NCBI RefSeq assembly: GCF_054482595.1
Contig: NZ_CM137008.1
Length of the DNA stretch: 64,000 nucleotides
Reading direction: 5' to 3' (one strand)
Shown: one piece after another, positions 4,060-22,721 of the stretch
Numbering within the stretch: position 1 is the first letter of the stretch
How the letters are laid out: each line of letters opens with the position of its first letter
Position numbers and translations under genes: made by a program
Notes under the pieces: generated by a model
The model's input: only the letters and a program-made list of their open reading frames with translations
Databases searched by the model: none
What the model was told of the DNA's origin: nothing

Positions 4060-4515
4060 ATGAATTCGTTATCCCGCACACAAAAACCACGGGCAGGTTT
4101 TACCCTGCTGGAAGTGATGGTGGTGATTGTTATTCTTGGCGTCCTGGCAAGTCTGGTGGTGCCTAACCTGTTGGGCAACAAAGAGAAAGCGGATCGGCAA
4201 AAAGCCATCAGCGATATCGTGGCGCTGGAAAACGCACTGGATATGTACCGACTGGATAACGGGCGTTATCCAACTACCGAGCAGGGGCTTGAGGCGCTGA
4301 TCCAGCAGCCAGCCAATATGGCGGACGCCCGCAACTACCGTACTGGTGGATACATTAAACGACTGCCAAAGGATCCGTGGGGCAATGATTATCAGTATCT
4401 CAGCCCGGGTGAAAAAGGGCTGTTTGATGTTTATACCCTGGGGGCGGATGGTCAGGAAAACGGGGAAGGCGCTGGCGCAGATATCGGTAACTGGAATTTG
4501 CAGGAGTTTCAGTAA
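4060..4515 (+). CDS. gspG: Major pseudopilin GspG
   Basis: Prepilin leader followed by GFTLLEVMVVIVILG. ATG 4060 is preceded by ACGGAG. The track start at 4033 is an upstream extension. Confidence 0.9.
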   Translation: MNSLSRTQKPRAGFTLLEVMVVIVILGVLASLVVPNLLGNKEKADRQKAISDIVALENALDMYRLDNGRYPTTEQGLEALIQQPANMADARNYRTGGYIKRLPKDPWGNDYQYLSPGEKGLFDVYTLGADGQENGEGAGADIGNWNLQEFQ

Positions 4516-14759: not shown

Positions 14760-17606
14760 TCAGAAAGTCACATTCAGTGTGGCCTGACCGTTATAACCTT
14801 CAGCGCTGCTGCCGCTGACACTGTGGGCATAACCGGCCTGAACGCCCAGGGTGATATTTTCCCGGACACGGGCTTCCAGTCCGGCCTGCAGGTCCAGTGT
14901 CGTGCCATTCCGGGACGGTGAGAACGTCATGTTACTGCCGGCTGCGGCTGTACCCATGCTCATGTCCCCCCGGGAGCTGAAGGTGCGGATAACAGAAGGC
15001 TGTACCCACCAGTTCACCTGCAGTTCACGCACACTGTGTTTGGCACTGTCGCGCAGGGTGTCACGGGATGAGGTGCCTTTACCAAAGTTCATATCGTTGT
15101 GGCTGCCCAGACGGAAGCCGGCACGCACATGTTGTGCACTGCCATGCCCGAACTTCACATAACCGGCGTTATCCTGGCCGTCATCCAGGGAGAGTCCCTG
15201 CCAGGTGTACTGCAGTTGCGGCTCCAGCATCAGATTGTCAGTGATACTGAAGGGCAGACCGGTTTCCAGTGAGCCCAGCCAGCCCCAGCCCCGGGCGCGG
15301 AAGTCGTTATTGTCCGATGACGCTTTCATGCTGTGGCGGGTTCCCTGTGCCACAATGTCAGCCCACAGGCCGGAGGACGTGTGTGTCAGATTCAGGTATC
15401 CGCCCAGGCTGCCGGCATCATCCCGGACCGTGCCGGCGCGGGAACCGTCATCATCCTTAACATCAACGGAAGAATGGCCTGCAGCACCATATACCCCTGT
15501 CGTCAGAGACATACCGGCAACCTCTGTTCTCAGCAGGTCACCCTCCAGACGGACGAAGCCATAGCTGCCGCTGCTTTCCGGCGTGGCTCCACGGGCAATA
15601 CCGCCGTTGTTATCGTGACCGAGATGACCGCCCTGAATGCTGAGACGGACGCTGTTATTTTCACCGTTTACACCGGTCTGATGGCTGCGGGAGCCTGCCA
15701 GAATCCGGTCATAGTCCATTGCCTGTGTCAACATGGATGTATACAGGGGGACTTCAGCACGATAAGCATTTTCACTGCGCAGGTACCAGTCTTCATCGCT
15801 GTCACGGTTCAGGGTGTAGTTAAAGGCGCCGGCCTGAAGCGGGCGACTCAGAGCAAATGCACCTTCTTCTGTGGTGGCACCATTCTGTGCATCCACAACC
15901 CGGATACCCTGTCCGGAGGTTGCCACCCCGAGGTTACTGTTTCCGACATTTGTAAACGCAAGCCAGGTTTTGCCGGTTGCCTGACCACCATTAATCACCA
16001 GCTGGTCAGAGGCATTGCTGCCATCAAGGCGAACACGCATATTGATGGTGCCACCCTGACCGGTGAGGTTACTGGTGGTCAGTTTATGGAACGTTACCGG
16101 GGCGTCGCCTTTTGCAACAGCACGGCTCAGGACGGCATCCTGTGTCGTCTGATTATCAAAGCGAATCTCCCCTGCGTTAACAATATCGCCGGTACTGACC
16201 ACATCACCATTCAGTACCATGCTGGCGCCTTTACTGAGCTGTGTTCTGCCACTCAGACTTCCCCCGGCAGCCAGCGTCAGTGTTCCACGATGTCCGACAG
16301 TGGTGTTGCCAGCCTGTCCCCCGGCATTAACCGTAAAGCTGCCGCCATTTTCCAGCAGCAGGCCGCTGGCCTGACCGGATATGCCATCAATACTGAACTT
16401 ACCGCTGGCATTGGTCCCCTCAACAGTGGCACCACTGTCTGCAATCAGGGCACCACCGGATGTCATGGTGACACCTGTCGCCTTACCACCGGCAGACACT
16501 GCCAGGGTACCGCCGTCATCCACCCGTGTTTTCTGCGCTGAATGACCCTCCAGTACATCCAGACGACCGCCGGACTCCAGAACAACACCGTCAGCCTTAC
16601 CGTTTTCCACCGCGAAATTGCCCAGACGGTTGCTGCCGGTGACGGTTGCCGCCGTACTGGTGACCAGTGCGCCTCCCTGCTTCAGGGTGACATTCGTGGC
16701 TGTACCACCGGCGTTCACCTGCAGTTTGCCTTTCTGGTTAACGGTGGTGAAATCCGCCAGACCACCTTCCTTGATAATCTGCCAGCCGTCACTGTTCACA
16801 ACAGTGTCAGACGTTGTACCTCCGTTGTGCACATACTGGTACCCCCCATTCAGCGTGGTATCCAGTGCGTGACCATGTACCGTCTGGTCGCCGCCGGCAT
16901 AAACCACCGTGGTGTTTGCCACTCCGGTGGCTACCACAATCTGACGACCATTTTTATTGATGGTGGTACGTACGGCATCTCCGCGAACAAACTGTCCGGT
17001 ATCAGCATTTTCCGCATCCGGTCCTCCTTCTGCGCCGGTATTCACAACCGTGTCGGTTGCCATTGCGCCGGATTTGACGGCCTGCCAGCCCTTCTCATTA
17101 ATGACGGTACCCGTTGCAATCCCGCCTTCATGTACCCACTGCTCACCGCCGTTCAGAGTGGTGTTCACTGCCTGCCCCTGAAGGCTCTGTCCTCCTCCGG
17201 CACTGATAACCGTGTCTGAAACGCTTCCTCCGGCATTCACTCTCTGAAGACCACCACCGGTGACAGTAGTGTTGTTGGCGATACCGCCATTTTGTATCCA
17301 TTGTCCGCCGGTATTGGCCTCGTTATCCGGCCCATACTCCAGCCCGGTACTGATGGTCATTCCGTTGGCCGTACCGAGGACAATCTGGTTGTCATGATTT
17401 GTCAGTGTTCCGTCGTTCACGGTTTCTCCCGCCTGTACAACCGTGTCAGCAGCCAGTGCCGGGACTGATGTGACAGCAGCAAGAGACAGTGCAACCGCCA
17501 CACCGGCGCGTTTTCCCCGTGAGCGGGCCAGTTCGGAGGCCACCACCAGGGTGCCCGTAATGTGATTCCATACCAGCCTGTAGCTGGTGTTCAGATGTCG
17601 TTTCAT
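14760..17606 (-). CDS. flu: Antigen 43-type self-associating autotransporter adhesin
   Basis: Starts [18 protein letters not shown] (extended autotransporter signal peptide) at 17606. The passenger is built of G/T/V-rich ~19-aa repeats. The C-terminal beta-barrel ends ATLNVTF. The track start at 17681 is an extension. Confidence 0.9.
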
Positions 17607-17814
17607 CAGCTTTTCCTTACAGAGGGTGAATAAAAAAGCCGGTACCCACAAATGTGGATACCGGCAGGTACAAAACAGCATGGTCAGATAAAGTGGTTTT
17701 TCCCGGGCATAAATGCTTCCCTTCTCTCATCCGCCAGAGAAGTATCAGTCCGTTGTGTGCAATTCCGTTCTGCATGATGAAGAGATTCAGCTGCCTTTTC
17801 GCAGACCATTAACC

Positions 17815-17865
17815 ACTATAAACGATCGATAGTAACGATCGATACCTGTTTTATCGATCGTTTTA
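17815..17865 (-). promoter_or_regulatory. agn43-type Dam/OxyR phase-variation switch
   Basis: Three GATC sites (17824, 17837, 17856) sit inside ACGATCGATAGTAACGATCGATACCTGTTTTATCGATCG, about 220-250 nt upstream of the antigen 43 start. Confidence 0.8.
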
Positions 17866-17977: not shown

Positions 17978-18850
17978 TCAGAAGAAAATCCAGTTCCATA
18001 CAGCGCGGGCAACAGAGACCACCGTGTCACGGACGGCACGCAGAACCGTGCGTGCAACAGAGGCAATACAGACGCTCTCCGCTGTGTCAAATATCCGGTC
18101 CACCGCACCGGTAAACTGTTCACGGGCCTGAGACCGGACAGATTCCGTGCGCAGCTCGTCCTGCAGGCGGGTCATCAGGGGACTGGCGGCATGGTCGGGA
18201 AGCGCTGTCATGAGCGCACTGACCAGCGTATCCAGTTCCCAGCCGGTGCGGGCCGATACGGCCACAACCGGATGTACGGGCCGGAACAGACGGAATACCG
18301 CCTCCGTTTTTTCGCGAATATTCTGTGCCTGTGCGGGAGAAGGCTGAATGCCGGCCATATCCCATTCATGGCAGGGCTCCGTTTTGTCGGCCTGCGTCAC
18401 CACAAACAGCACCTGCTGATGTCCCCGGTGCAGGATGTGTCGCCAGAAATACTCATCCACAGACAGGGCACGGTCATCGGCTTTAATCAGCCACAGTACC
18501 AGGTCAAGTTCAGGCAGAATGTCACGGTACAGGGCTTCATACTCTGCATCCCTGTCCCGGCTCTCGCCCACCCCGGGCAGGTCAGTGATAATCATACTGT
18601 GACCGTGGCCACTCAGACGGAAGCGCCGCACTTCCCGGGTGCCGGCGTGAACATCACTGACCGGGGTGACCTCCCCCTGAAACAGTGCATTACAGAGTGA
18701 GGATTTACCGGCCCCGCTTTTCCCCATAATGCCAATCACGGGTTCGTGACTGGTGAGTTTGCGCAGATGTTCCAGGATGTGACGGGAAAGTGAGTAAGGC
18801 AGGGAGGAGAGCGGTTTTTCAATTGCCTCAATGGCATCAGACGGATTCAT
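17978..18850 (-). CDS. YeeP/YkfA/YfjP-type island GTPase
   Basis: P-loop GKSGAGKSS, starting MNPSDAIEAIEKP at 18850. It lies immediately upstream of antigen 43, as in CP4-44. Confidence 0.8.
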   Translation of the reverse strand: MNPSDAIEAIEKPLSSLPYSLSRHILEHLRKLTSHEPVIGIMGKSGAGKSSLCNALFQGEVTPVSDVHAGTREVRRFRLSGHGHSMIITDLPGVGESRDRDAEYEALYRDILPELDLVLWLIKADDRALSVDEYFWRHILHRGHQQVLFVVTQADKTEPCHEWDMAGIQPSPAQAQNIREKTEAVFRLFRPVHPVVAVSARTGWELDTLVSALMTALPDHAASPLMTRLQDELRTESVRSQAREQFTGAVDRIFDTAESVCIASVARTVLRAVRDTVVSVARAVWNWIFF

Positions 18851-18987
18851 ACATGTATTCCCGGTGAAAAAAGACAAAACCCCCGCACACCGGAAAGGTG
18901 GCGGGGGACTCACGGAGATAATATATGTCTGAAATTATTTGGAATGCAGGTATATGTGGCTGATACAGGTCTGAATCTAATCTGACA

Positions 18988-19011
18988 GTCCGCTCTGTGC
19001 CAGTAGCGGAC
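18988..19011. repeat. Hairpin repeat copy A (GTCCGCT-N10-AGCGGAC)
   Basis: 7-bp perfect stem at the transition from island DNA of normal composition to AT-rich DNA. Confidence 0.6.
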
Positions 19012-19204
19012 GTTACTAACATAATTCAAGAAGATTAAAGTATTCCGGAAACGATTTTGTTAGAATGTTTTAATTATGTAACCAAGATACATTTTCTTAT
19101 GAGAGTATATGCGAGTTTTTATCTTATAATCAGAAGATTACAATCTGAACTTGTGATAGTAAAGTTACATAATTAATTATGTTAACATTGAAAAAATCAT
19201 AGGA

Positions 19205-19945
19205 ATGCTAGTGATAAAGCCTGAAATTACATCTCTATTCAAATACTGCCCTATCGGTAAGAATCAATTAAGTGCTCTTGCACAGCGGAAAATCTGGTAC
19301 TCAAAACCGGCAGGATTTAACGATCCTTTTGACACCCAATTTTATGTGAGAGGACAAAGGCATGTGTACGAACGGGAAATGGACTCTGAAAAATTATCAG
19401 CCATTTTTGGTGAAGATATGTCAGATGTAATGGTTTCCAAAAAACGTTCTCTTGATGAACTTTTGGACAGATTTAAAAGCGGTTTAGAAAAGTTAGGTAT
19501 TCTTTCACTAGCAAGCAGTAACAAAAATTTGCTGATGTGGTCGCATTATGCTTCTGAACATAAAGGTATGTGCTTAGAGTTTAAACGCATCGCCGGCACA
19601 GCCTTAGCAGATGATAAAATAACTAGGCCGATGAATTACAATGATAATTATCCATCGATACAGGCAAGTTCAATTTTAAATGAAGTCGATACATTATCTA
19701 ATAAAATTAGAATATTACATACAAAATCTAAACATTGGGAATACGAGCAGGAGTGGAGGCATGTAGTTGAGCAAGGTAATGAGTTACATCCTTGGCCCGC
19801 AGAATTAATTTCTGTTTATTTCGGCTGCAAGACAGATATGTCAGATATACATTTGGTAAGAAGTATAATTACGGACCCAAATGTTAATTACTATAAAGGA
19901 AATTTGTACAGTGATAAATTTGACATTTATTTTCAACCGATATAA
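19205..19945 (+). CDS. DUF2971-like orphan protein
   Basis: 246 aa in very AT-rich DNA. Motifs LFKY...WYSKPAGFNDPFD, LLMWSHYASEHKGMCLEF and KHWEYEQEWR fit DUF2971 as I remember it. GTG 19211 is an alternative start with better SD spacing. Confidence 0.6.
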   Translation: MLVIKPEITSLFKYCPIGKNQLSALAQRKIWYSKPAGFNDPFDTQFYVRGQRHVYEREMDSEKLSAIFGEDMSDVMVSKKRSLDELLDRFKSGLEKLGILSLASSNKNLLMWSHYASEHKGMCLEFKRIAGTALADDKITRPMNYNDNYPSIQASSILNEVDTLSNKIRILHTKSKHWEYEQEWRHVVEQGNELHPWPAELISVYFGCKTDMSDIHLVRSIITDPNVNYYKGNLYSDKFDIYFQPI

Positions 19946-20006
19946 TTACGTAAAAACATATATACATTAACTAATGTTAAGTATTGTAAATACATCACGA
20001 TCGATT

Positions 20007-20076
20007 GAATGTCTGCTGTTCGCTCGCAGCGGACCTTCAGTTCATGTAACTTTTCCGCTTCGTACCAAAAGCGGAC
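20007..20076. repeat. Hairpin repeat copies B1+B2
   Basis: GAATGTCTGCTG-ttcgctcg-CAGCGGAC (20011-20034) and TCCGCTT-N8-AAGCGGA (20054-20075), between the DUF2971 gene and the GNAT fragment. Confidence 0.6.
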
Positions 20077-20090
20077 GTCAAAATGTATGT

Positions 20091-20438
20091 TCAGCTAGCG
20101 TAAGTTGAGCGTTTCATAATGATGTCTCTCTGCGGGTCTGACCCAACCTGACAAATATGCTCTCCAACCTCGGTAAACCCAAGCTTACGATAAAAAGAGA
20201 TTGCCCTTGGGTTATATTCCCAGACACCTAACCAGACAGGATCCGATCCCTTTGCCTCAAATTCAGCAAAGCACTTTTGCATCAGTGCTTGCGCAAATCC
20301 TTTACCATGGTAGGGCTCATCGACATACAGGCACAGAATTTCTCTGGCATAGATGCTATTGACACAGGGAGGAAACTCTTCCCACCTTAGTTGAGCGTCA
20401 ATTTGTGGCGAAAACCCATGAGTTAGAAATTCAATCAA
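20091..20438 (-). pseudogene. GNAT acetyltransferase, N-terminally truncated
   Basis: Only the C-terminal ~115 aa remain, including the acetyl-CoA motif (HGKGFAQALM). The frame is closed by TAA immediately upstream of a TTG pseudo-start. Confidence 0.6.
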
Positions 20439-20528: not shown

Positions 20529-21665
20529 TTAAAAATTAAGTTCATACCTATCAATTACACCATTTTTTATTCTGTAAATAACATTAGATGAAATTGACTC
20601 AAAGTAAACATACCCAACTGCTTGGATTATATTTATTAGCATGCAAGAAAATGAAACAATGAATAGTGGCAGCGAGGATGTGTTGTAGTTTACCAGGTAA
20701 ATAAATTCGCCATAATACAATGGCCCACACATTGCGAGTGCTAATGATATAAATAAAAAACCTTTTATTGCTTTAATTAAAAATATAGAGGCGTTTATTT
20801 GTTTTCTTATCTTTTCATCGCCTAAGAGATAAAGGTTGAAATCTTGAGATTTTGTTGTGTCCACTGAGAAGATATTAAGAATATGTGGGTATATCAATGA
20901 TATATCCTTTGTTTTCATAAGATTCATCATCTCTATTCTCCGCGTGACGAACAGTGAACCCAACCAAAAAACCATGAATACAGGCATAGCATAACTAGCT
21001 ATTTTGGCTATACTTATCAATGATACACTAGATGCCATGTCACCTATTTTAAATGGGATAATTAAGGTTGATTCTATGTTGACTATCTCTATCTTTGAAT
21101 TACTCTCATCTTTTATTTTTCCATCCAACCAGTTCATTGCATCATGATAGTTTGCGATTTTATCTTTTTCAGGAAGGGCCGATTCTATTTTATCCCTTAC
21201 AATATAGCCCACACTTGATTTTTCAATCTCTTTTTTCAACACATCGTACATAAAGTATTTTAACTCATTAATTGAACTCACCTCATCAAGGTCTATTTCA
21301 CGCAATCCCTCATTTATCATTTTTTTTCTAATGGAAAAGAATTCATTTTCTATTTCTGATTTATATCTTACTGTGTCCATCTCTGATTTATTTATTCTTT
21401 TTCGAAAGTCTAGAATATCAGATACGCTTTCATTAACAGCTGAAATTTGTGTTTCGATAAATTCTATTTTTCTTCTTTTTGTTTCAATTTGTTGTTTTAT
21501 ATCTTTGTATGAGGTTATTAAAGCAAATAGGTTTTGGCTGCTTAATGTAATTAATAAAGAGCAGGTGAGGAAACTAAAAATAACAACAACAATACTCATG
21601 TATAATAATCTATCAAATCTCTTTCCCAGTTCGTACAACCTATCCACTATTCTTCTCACTTTCAA
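20529..21665 (-). CDS. Orphan membrane protein: N-terminal TM, ~150-aa coiled-coil/charged region, C-terminal multi-TM domain
   Basis: 378-aa uninterrupted ORF in AT-rich DNA. Hydrophobic segments at about aa 22-50 and in the last ~150 aa. KE-rich heptad-like middle region. I recognise no family. Confidence 0.6.
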   Translation of the reverse strand: MKVRRIVDRLYELGKRFDRLLYMSIVVVIFSFLTCSLLITLSSQNLFALITSYKDIKQQIETKRRKIEFIETQISAVNESVSDILDFRKRINKSEMDTVRYKSEIENEFFSIRKKMINEGLREIDLDEVSSINELKYFMYDVLKKEIEKSSVGYIVRDKIESALPEKDKIANYHDAMNWLDGKIKDESNSKIEIVNIESTLIIPFKIGDMASSVSLISIAKIASYAMPVFMVFWLGSLFVTRRIEMMNLMKTKDISLIYPHILNIFSVDTTKSQDFNLYLLGDEKIRKQINASIFLIKAIKGFLFISLALAMCGPLYYGEFIYLVNYNTSSLPLFIVSFSCMLINIIQAVGYVYFESISSNVIYRIKNGVIDRYELNF

Positions 21666-22144
21666 AGGCGATATAGATAGGTTATATCATGCCTTCATCT
21701 TTTGAACTAAACAATCTATATCAGATAACAGTTCTCTTCGCAGTTGTGTCCCTACTCTTTGGTGGCCCGTAGGCTCCTGAGCTGGACATCGTGCGGGACT
21801 ACCTCACAGTCAATTGTAAGCAGTAAAGAGGAACGAGAACCATTCATAGAGCCTAACACACTAAATGCCGCATTGAATCCCACGACTCGGCACGATCAAC
21901 GTAAGATAATCGGAGCTTGCTGCATGGTGACAAATGGAAAATGTGAAGGTAAAGAAAACGACATTACTAACTGACGTTTGTATCTAACACTGGGGACAGG
22001 TCACCTTGAATCGATGGAAGTCTCATTATTCAGAAGCCGTGCTTCTCAGGGTTCTCCTGCAGTGGATAGTTTGTACGATTTGCTCCTCCGGACACTACGG
22101 GCCAGAAAAGTTGAAAATTGAGACTATGTACCAGGTGCCTCAAC

Positions 22145-22215
22145 GTCCGCTCATCGCTCACAACGGACCTTCAGCTCAGCCGCTCCGGCCGCTTCATGCA
22201 ATGAATGTACGCAGC
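22145..22215. repeat. Hairpin repeat copy C (degenerate)
   Basis: 22155-22180 matches 20021-20046 at 21/26 positions (CGCTC.CA.CGGACCTTCAG.TCA). GAATGTACGCAGC follows at 22203. Confidence 0.5.
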
Positions 22216-22508
22216 CAGTCAGAATATTAAGGTGCGGATTTCAGTTCACTTGTCAGCCCTGTGATGCAACAAGTTGCGGCTCCGGTTCGTGGGAGAGATG
22301 AAACGACGGTAGCTGAAGTTACTGAAATGAAGAATTCAGAGAGACTGAATGATATGCCTCACCTTTAGTGAATAGTGTAAAAACGGGAGACTCTCACCCG
22401 GGATTATCCACTCATGCTCAATGTATAATTTTCGTGTCCCTCACAGGTAAGGGCCGGATACATTTGTTGAGTACGCTGCAGAATTGGTAATCGGGGACCC
22501 TGCCGTCT

Positions 22509-22721
22509 TTAACTCCGGGTCTTATGCTGCTCATTTGCCACAAAATCCAGGTGCGCCTGCTCAATCATTTCATTCAGCATTTTTTTTGGGGGGACACCAC
22601 GACTTCGGGCAATACTTTCAAGCTGTTTGTGGATTTTTCCGGACAGTTTCAGCGGGACGGAACCATCAGCACGTTCATCACGCCTTTTTTGTTGCTCCCT
22701 GGCACTTTTCAGTTCATCCAC
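22509..22721 (-). CDS. Small ribbon-helix-helix (CopG/ParG-like) protein, orphan
   Basis: 70 aa, GTG start. A basic tail is followed by VPLKLSGKIHKQLESIARSRGVPPKKMLNEMIEQ, a strand-helix-helix pattern. No partner ORF lies downstream. Confidence 0.4.
   Translation of the reverse strand: MDELKSAREQQKRRDERADGSVPLKLSGKIHKQLESIARSRGVPPKKMLNEMIEQAHLDFVANEQHKTRS

Follow-up and report, generated by a model that had tools for sequence, protein, structure and literature searches.

What does a solitary, AT-rich gene do in a chromosomal island of Escherichia coli, and how did it come to be there? The question is raised by the open reading frame (ORF) at 19205..19945 (+) of a 64,000-nucleotide stretch of contig NZ_CM137008.1 (RefSeq assembly GCF_054482595.1), the whole of which we call the window. 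This ORF encodes a 246-aa protein with a predicted ADP-ribosyltransferase (ART) fold, listed in RefSeq as WP_000960228.1, "DUF2971 domain-containing protein." The gene is genuine and intact, and it belongs to the DUF2971 family and to PDC-S31, a PADLOC family of defense candidates. We think it probable that its product is a stand-alone abortive-infection anti-phage protein with an ART fold, of the type represented by the lactococcal protein Aristaios, and that it is borne on an exchanged 1.03-kb cassette. A defense function as such appears likely from our analysis, and the gene is a credible but unsurprising defense candidate. The first-pass annotation, made from the sequence alone, had cautiously read it as a stand-alone defense or abortive-infection gene. 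Our results support that reading: of the three findings it had named as refuting, we checked two, and in both cases we found the opposite, a DUF2971 match and relatives with defense neighbors.

Membership in DUF2971 and PDC-S31

The 246-aa ORF is present as annotated at first, and the motifs LFKY, FNDPFD, MWSHYASEHKGMCLEF, and KHWEYEQEWR follow one another in the order then described. In an alignment of 58 family sequences, these motifs fall on invariant columns, which comprise N39, D40, P41, W112, H114, Y115, G121, Y145, K174, W178, E181, E183, R185, and G207. The signature residues of DUF2971 (LYKY, FNDPF, LMWSHY..H.G, and K...W.YE.EWR) are all present, on invariant or nearly invariant columns of the same alignment. 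The Pfam hidden Markov model for DUF2971 (PF11185), a check that had been proposed, matched with 44.7 bits, above the curated gathering cut-off of 22; the match covers residues 111 to 185 only and spans profile positions 1 to 88 of 89.

PADLOC, also run as proposed, places the protein in PDC-S31: model PDLC04990 matched with E = 2.5e-58 over residues 5 to 244, and three further PDC-S31 models matched as well. A PDC-S31 assignment takes a model match and no second gene, and the window gene resembles the family both in the nearly full-length reach of the best model and in its single-gene architecture. PDC systems (PADLOC-DB v2) are candidates proposed by association, without validation. A scan of the protein against NCBIfam gave no match, and our literature search found no searchable paper that mentions PDC-S31. 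A database search yielded 120 relatives, with identities ranging from 94% (Enterobacter) down to ∼22%. Every homolog tested matched PDC-S31, including two Vibrio cholerae integron cassettes, copies linked to restriction-modification (R-M) genes, and a cargo ORF in viral contig L103 that lies beside the border repeat called hairpin A below.

DUF2971 had been described to us as a family of unknown function. The family assignment stands, but the "unknown function" does not, as a validated defense member and a published ADP-ribosyltransferase prediction exist (PMC11381338, PMC12522546). The family is very large, with representatives in more than 5,900 species (PMC12522546), and it has one experimentally proven single-gene anti-phage member. 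That member, Aristaios, is a 316-aa DUF2971 protein encoded on Lactococcus plasmid pUCCL641, a single-gene abortive-infection system whose AlphaFold model resembles an ART (Grafakou et al. 2024, PMC11381338). Expressed alone, Aristaios confers abortive-infection-type resistance against Skunavirus (PMC11381338); it has since been used as a control that abolishes production of phage structural proteins and is listed among systems that interfere with phage transcription (PMC13064643, PMC12967558). Compared by published description, the window gene likewise specifies one protein, which has a DUF2971 domain and is predicted to fold like an ART. The two differ in standing: Aristaios has a proven abortive-infection phenotype, whereas the window protein is a candidate by family membership.

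Predicted fold, active site, and selection

An AlphaFold2 model built on the 58-sequence alignment reached a predicted local distance difference test (pLDDT) score of 93.8 and a predicted template modeling (pTM) score of 0.86, and the modeled protein resembles an ART core fold. Foldseek returned a single notable match, E. coli DarT1 with NAD+ (8BAQ; E = 0.037, probability 0.75). The residues that would form two of the ART catalytic motifs, the tyrosine of motif II (Y115) and the ExE of motif III (E181-x-E183), are invariant in the alignment. In the model, E183 stands at the start of a beta-strand with a short helix before it, a position that we take as the usual place of the catalytic Glu. A published survey, using more sensitive profile-profile methods, makes DUF2971 a new ART family of the DarT/AbiGi type, in which the motif II tyrosine is strictly conserved and motif III is ExE (PMC12522546). 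Our own scores are modest and point to an ART at the level of the fold, in agreement with two independent publications, this survey and the description of Aristaios (PMC12522546, PMC11381338).

DarT, the toxin of DarTG, ADP-ribosylates thymidine or guanosine in single-stranded DNA. DUF2971 differs from it in having large helical inserts, in lacking a conserved motif I histidine, and in showing no sequence match to DarT models. No gene for a DarG macrodomain antitoxin adjoins the window gene either; the conserved cassette is a single ORF, and its neighbors encode a GTPase and a GNAT acetyltransferase.

Purifying selection acts on the gene, whose function has been retained. The ratio of nonsynonymous to synonymous substitution rates (dN/dS) is 0.17 between the window gene and its Raoultella ortholog (about 79 to 80% amino acid identity) and 0.22 between the Enterobacter and Raoultella genes.

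The gene travels as a bordered cassette

The foreign composition noted at first is evident: G+C content is 0.249 in the leader (19012-19204), 0.355 in the coding sequence, and 0.231 in the 3' tail, versus 0.57 to 0.58 in the adjacent GTPase and Ag43 genes. Hairpin repeats had been said to bound the gene, and they proved real, nonrandom, and confined to cassette borders. With as many as 2 mismatches permitted, the pattern TCCGCT-N10-AGCGGAC is found at four sites in the window (18988, 20011, 20053, and 22145); its 8 strand-hits compare with 1.41 expected, and 0 of 100 shuffles reached 8. Two loop types are found, A (yTGTGCCAGw) and B (nTTCGCTCAC), and the A and B repeats are inverted versions of one ∼38-nt element. 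Hairpin A folds with -16.5 kcal/mol (z = -3.2). Some stems show compensatory variants (GTCTGCT...AGCAGAC), but C-A mismatches are also common, and the search, anchored on the loop, is noisy.

Cassette 1 begins with a left border element of ∼38 nt (18977..19014; the border elements carry no strand), in which hairpin A (18988-19011, GTCCGCT-CTGTGCCAGT-AGCGGAC) is followed by GTT. Next come an AT-rich leader (19012..19204, +), which is carried along with the gene and is presumed to hold the promoter and 5' untranslated region, the gene itself, and an AT-rich 3' untranslated tail (19946..20010, +). The right border element (20008..20044) contains hairpin B (20011-20034) with the loop GTTCGCTCGC and is an inverted version of element A. 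The E. coli, Enterobacter, and Raoultella copies share homology from hairpin A into the first half of hairpin B, where it stops. Inside the cassette, identity to the Enterobacter copy is 94 to 100%, with 96.9% in the 3' tail, and outside it is ∼35%; the leader is 93.8% identical to the Enterobacter copy and 63% identical to the Raoultella copy, and outer flanks are at ∼30 to 36%. These limits mark the cassette boundaries. Therefore, the gene travels as a ∼1.03-kb module that has landed in three unrelated islands. In a set of 5,426 complete E. coli genomes, the cassette occurs in 169 (∼3%), always on the chromosome; at least 80% of it is present in 161 genomes, and identity is at least 99% in 168.

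Genomes of other E. coli strains locate the edges as well. Matches to the GTPase flank stop at window positions 19011-19021 (query 1012-1022), the inner edge of A, or at 18943-18956 (about query 944-957), ∼20 to 35 nt before element A, and matches to the right flank begin at 22142-22150 (query 4143-4151), at a second right border called B'. No target-site duplications were seen by eye outside the A/B elements. Between B and B' lies a second cassette, whose left border hairpin A' (20053..20078) starts 42 nt from the start of B to give a B-A double hairpin junction; this spacing of exactly 42 nt between the two starts holds wherever B and A abut in E. coli, Enterobacter, and Raoultella. Element B' (22142..22179; hairpin at 22145-22168) is 74% complementary to 18977-19014 and closes a two-cassette array, in which A, the DUF2971 gene, and B are followed by A', a GNAT gene with a membrane-protein gene, and B'.

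That the DUF2971 gene has no operon partner was confirmed: the module conserved across three genera consists of this single ORF, and no recurring partner family emerged among 287 neighboring ORFs of 80 distant relatives from many phyla. The proposed promoter region (19020-19200) fared less evenly. It is AT-rich and kept with the gene, but a consensus scan did not bear out the promoter, with 16 sites found versus 13.3 expected and none scoring at least 9/12 on the + strand of 19026-19204. The P2 Z-region GenBank records discussed below annotate -35/-10 signals at the position equivalent to the leader, just inside the repeats. The leader also holds a perfect 13-nt inverted repeat (19070-19082/19164-19176), which we rejected as a conserved structure or operator because it is broken without compensation in the Enterobacter copy. 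An AGGA Shine-Dalgarno-like motif (19201-19213 region) abuts the ATG at 19205 and sits 6 nt ahead of an in-frame GTG at 19211, for which its spacing is better; the true start may be this GTG, yielding a protein of 244 aa, the commonest homolog length. The island had also been considered tRNA linked, a claim that we could not uphold, as ARAGORN finds no tRNA in the 64-kb window.

Genomic company of the relatives

Relatives of the gene do sit among known defense genes. The Enterobacter hormaechei ortholog (94%) directly follows a CBASS operon (SMODS, bacHORMA, AAA, and Cap17-like genes). The Raoultella ortholog (80%) lies in an integrase island on the smpB side, between a Schlafen/AlbA_2 gene, a Lit-like U49 peptidase gene, and an HD/dGTPase-like gene. 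Orthologs of Vibrio parahaemolyticus and Shewanella (66 to 67%) stand beside a gene for a ∼200-aa tyrosine recombinase and a type I R-M operon, and the V. cholerae relative (36%) is a chromosomal superintegron cassette, located beside rplT-intIA or among DUF645/DUF3709/GNAT cassettes. Among the distant relatives, several loci contain type I R-M genes and one appears to lie in a BREX operon, with single cases of PD-T4-7, type IIG R-M, GajB, and DRT; weak relatives (25 to 27%) are found in SSU5-like phage-plasmids and a Pseudomonas phage. The enrichment near defense genes that had been anticipated is thus seen as a qualitative association, without a matched control set, and the recurrent location among known defense genes that goes with PDC-S31 is likewise found in a qualitative sense.

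Three observations concern individual loci. In V. cholerae (loci L013-L017), where the PDC-S31 genes are superintegron cassettes, locus L017 carries two different PDC-S31 cassettes in tandem, the first two after intIA. In Geomonas propionica (L071 2103-15401), four large ORFs with matches to BrxC, PglX, PglZ, and BrxL surround a distant DUF2971 gene, which appears to be embedded in a BREX operon. The ∼200-aa tyrosine recombinase adjoins a PDC-S31 gene in three genera (L004 8869-9471, L009 8767-9363, and L018 8782-9378), being 52 to 54% identical between Enterobacter and Vibrio/Shewanella. The V. parahaemolyticus and Shewanella recombinases are 98.5% identical and the adjacent PDC-S31 proteins 71% identical, which suggests allele replacement beside a conserved module. 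This recombinase was rejected as the mover of the window cassette because the window encodes no homolog of it; no other recombinase homolog linked to the cassettes was found within the window.

The border hairpins recur in prophages and P2 Z-regions

We searched IMG/VR for exact copies of hairpin A, using 22 specified bases, and recovered 90 stretches, with 59 nonredundant loci among them. To the left of A are a few recurrent backbone ends, namely, genes for a tail-fiber assembly protein, UmuC/ImpB, DUF977, Lom/Ail, and a P4-type integrase. To the right, after GGAC|RTT, the sequence varies by locus, and the 90 stretches represent 66 distinct flank combinations. The first two ORFs on this variable side are rich in known systems, including several retron types, Shedu, Septu PtuA, AbiEi/Eii, and DarG; PD-T7-1, HEC-08, GmrSD, HEPN proteins, and a caspase-like protein are also encoded there, and a tail sheath gene often comes after. 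Hairpin B lies 0.4 to 5.8 kb downstream of A in 34 of the 59 nonredundant viral loci, and the double junction recurs too, with B exactly 42 nt upstream of A in 9 viral loci and 39 nt upstream in 2 more. The cargo of one viral slot (L103, also L138) includes a divergent member of PDC-S31. Cargo is found in both orientations relative to A, a pattern that either inversion between A and B or insertion in both directions could produce.

BLAST comparison of the tail-fiber-side junction with GenBank phages led to records AJ512676-AJ512685, each titled as a "P2-ECxx proviral Z-region," in which the junction is annotated as "left inverted repeat" and a "right inverted repeat" is marked beyond the cargo. 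The left inverted repeat of P2-EC30 ends with hairpin A, its right inverted repeat begins with a B-type hairpin, and window positions 18977-19003 are 96% identical over 27 nt to the former. The borders of the window cassettes are thus identical in kind to the P2 Z-region repeats: cargo is bracketed by the annotated left and right repeats, hairpin A being the inner end of the left and B the inner end of the right. In both settings, the cargo is AT rich with its own promoter-like leader. They differ in location, as the window cassettes lie in a CP4-type island upstream of the YeeP-like GTPase gene and Ag43 core and not between the tail-fiber assembly and tail sheath genes of a P2-like prophage, and in number, as the window has two cassettes concatenated via the B-A junction.

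The repeats are therefore not new, having been described, at least for P2, in 2004. The Z-region records are said to belong to a study by Nilsson, Karlsson & Haggard-Ljungquist (2004, Mol Biol Evol 21:1-13). Neither hairpins nor inverted repeats are mentioned in the two leading recent papers on P2/P4 defense hotspots, and a literature search with the hairpin sequence returned nothing relevant. The route by which defenses pass between P2/P4 and other mobile elements was stated in 2026 to be unresolved (PMC13586616). Through the border hairpins, the CP4-type island slot is connected with the P2 Z-region hotspot as well as with other prophage sites that have retrons, Shedu, Septu, AbiE, and DarTG, and the hairpins offer a concrete, testable sequence signal for defense-gene swapping that recent surveys left unexplained.

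The arrangement recalls integron cassettes, which likewise comprise one gene each, are poor in promoters or self-contained, and are delimited by sites that form hairpins, and the 36%-identical relative is a genuine V. cholerae superintegron cassette. The window hairpins differ in being 24 nt long, in having conserved loops, and in flanking the cargo as inverted repeats. We rejected them as integron attC sites because they lack RYYYAAC/GTTRRRY cores and the window contains no integron integrase. A preprint on defense in sedentary integrons mentions neither DUF2971 nor ADP-ribosylation.

Proposed function and alternatives

From the family, the predicted fold, and the genomic setting, we infer a course of events that extends from defense of E. 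coli, through catalytic activity, its trigger, and its target, to movement of the cassette. In uninfected cells, the protein would be kept harmless by low expression from the AT-rich, probably H-NS-silenced cassette, by autoinhibition, or by both, and restraint may also come from the need for a phage-derived trigger; we look to these because there is no antitoxin. H-NS silencing of AT-rich immunity loci is reported in a 2026 preprint. On infection, the protein would transfer ADP-ribose from NAD+ to a macromolecule on which phage gene expression depends, so that phage transcription or late protein synthesis would halt and the infected cell would be sacrificed. Among candidate targets, we would place nucleic acid first, because DNA (DarT) and RNA (Tpt1) are the substrates of the nearest folds and the block imposed by Aristaios falls on phage transcription and late protein synthesis; a protein would come second and plain NAD+ consumption third. 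The cassette, in the order hairpin A, leader, gene, and hairpin B, would be exchanged among prophage and island cargo slots that share the inverted-repeat borders.

Several points weigh against this reading. The case for defense by the window protein is built on family, fold, and context. Its length of 246 aa, in an enterobacterial chromosomal island, departs from the 316 aa of Aristaios, from a Gram-positive plasmid, and a tblastn search of a plasmid collection with two baits listed no Lactococcus record, so the likeness to Aristaios is by description only. As to the fold, Foldseek against the PDB gave no match at E ≤ 0.001 and was otherwise essentially negative; PDB chains searched with the family profile gave none at E ≤ 10, Pfam ART families none even at E ≤ 10, and the PADLOC DarT models no sequence match. 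Active-site residues, including those of the ART motifs, were assigned from the alignment and secondary structure, and the histidine of motif I is not conserved, in line with the report that this residue of H-Y-E transferases is poorly conserved in DUF2971 (PMC12522546). Many neighbors among the 80 distant relatives are ordinary housekeeping genes. Between the window gene and its near-identical Enterobacter copy (L004 8001-8741), dN/dS is 0.87, a value based on few substitutions (∼14 amino acid versus ∼5 synonymous changes) that could reflect noise, relaxed constraint, or diversifying selection. Finally, in E. coli KC-Dl-1 (L003 284-6027), an A...B pair brackets a TonB-dependent receptor and an ABC transporter cluster, resembling iron uptake genes; therefore, the slots are not restricted to defense cargo.

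The last point bears on a different role, that of a selfish "moron" or addiction-type toxin that stabilizes the cassette or island, or of some other lysogenic-conversion trait, with no phage protection. We judge this improbable, although the gene is mobile, AT-rich single-gene cargo with its own leader, a CbtA/CbeA toxin-antitoxin pair lies in the adjacent island core, the term for such cargo in the P2 Z-region records is "putative lysogenic conversion proteins," and the same slots at times hold nondefense cargo. An addiction module would call for an antitoxin or other partner gene, and there is none; moreover, an anti-phage phenotype has been demonstrated for a family member, Aristaios, and slot neighbors are predominantly known defense systems.

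A second alternative keeps the protein defensive by another mechanism: its ART fold might be noncatalytic, or it might act as an NADase or as a sensor of NAD or ADP-ribose. The invariant Y115, E181-x-E183, H114, K174, and R185 argue for a maintained active site, and the block that Aristaios imposes on phage gene expression is compatible with target modification. We give this alternative a small chance.

A secreted or injected ART effector, or a toxin acting on eukaryotic hosts or rival bacteria, is highly improbable. In a Legionella survey, ∼18% of DUF2971 proteins were predicted effectors, enteric pathogens included (PMC12522546), but no secretion-system, immunity, or delivery-domain gene is linked to the gene in any close context, and the protein is modeled as a compact single domain of 246 aa. 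Least credible is a housekeeping-type role as a Tpt1/KptA-like RNA 2'-phosphotransferase or RNA-repair enzyme, as only one arginine (R185) is invariant and the Arg-His-Arg-Arg tetrad that defines Tpt1 is not conserved, the gene is patchy (3% of E. coli genomes), mobile, and AT rich, and neither NCBIfam nor Pfam gives a KptA match.

Returning to the stand-alone anti-phage protein, a bolder version can be framed, which we put forward as tentative and rather unlikely. It holds that the A/B hairpins are recombination sites of a dedicated cassette-exchange system and, separately, that the PDC-S31 protein is an antitoxin-free, self-restrained nucleic acid ADP-ribosyltransferase with a new target. 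The exchange system may resemble integrons, except that its 24-nt hairpins are inverted and that no integrase is linked to it, and it may have gone unnoticed in recent work. It may shuttle single defense modules among P2-like Z-regions, CP4-type islands, prophage sites flanked by UmuC, Lom, or DUF977 genes, and integrase-proximal sites. If true, such a system would answer how defense cargo moves between unrelated mobile elements (PMC13586616). The window gene is a good E. coli entry point to this large family, in which Aristaios is the only validated member, offering a defined 1-kb native cassette that is open to standard coliphage assays.

Neighboring DNA in the window

To the left of the array lie the YeeP-like GTPase gene (17978-18913, -) and the Ag43 gene (14760-17681, -). 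The sole Rfam match, to the IS102 RNA (17625-17861, -; 74.6 bits versus a gathering score of 46), is located upstream of Ag43.

Cassette 2 carries a gene for a 115-aa GNAT acetyltransferase (20091-20438, -), which matches only the C-terminal half of GNAT profiles, and one for a 378-aa membrane/coiled-coil protein (20529-21665, -), with predicted coiled coil and membrane segments, no family match, and weak PADLOC hits. This cargo is absent beside the Enterobacter and Raoultella orthologs. The GNAT and 378-aa proteins form a separate cassette and are not partners of the DUF2971 gene; they may be another uncharacterized cargo system. The cassette also contains ∼400 nt of noncoding DNA (21744-22141) with a 36-nt inverted repeat (21757-21792/22075-22110). 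Rfam finds nothing in 21600-22500, and on neither strand does the noncoding stretch fold better than shuffled sequence.

Beyond the array, a 70-aa ORF (22509-22721, -) is the 3' remnant of a gene for a 383-aa hypothetical protein. In E. coli S88 (L002 2432-3583), this gene is intact and lies directly upstream of the GTPase gene; in the window, its place is taken by the two-cassette array and ∼370 bp of further sequence.

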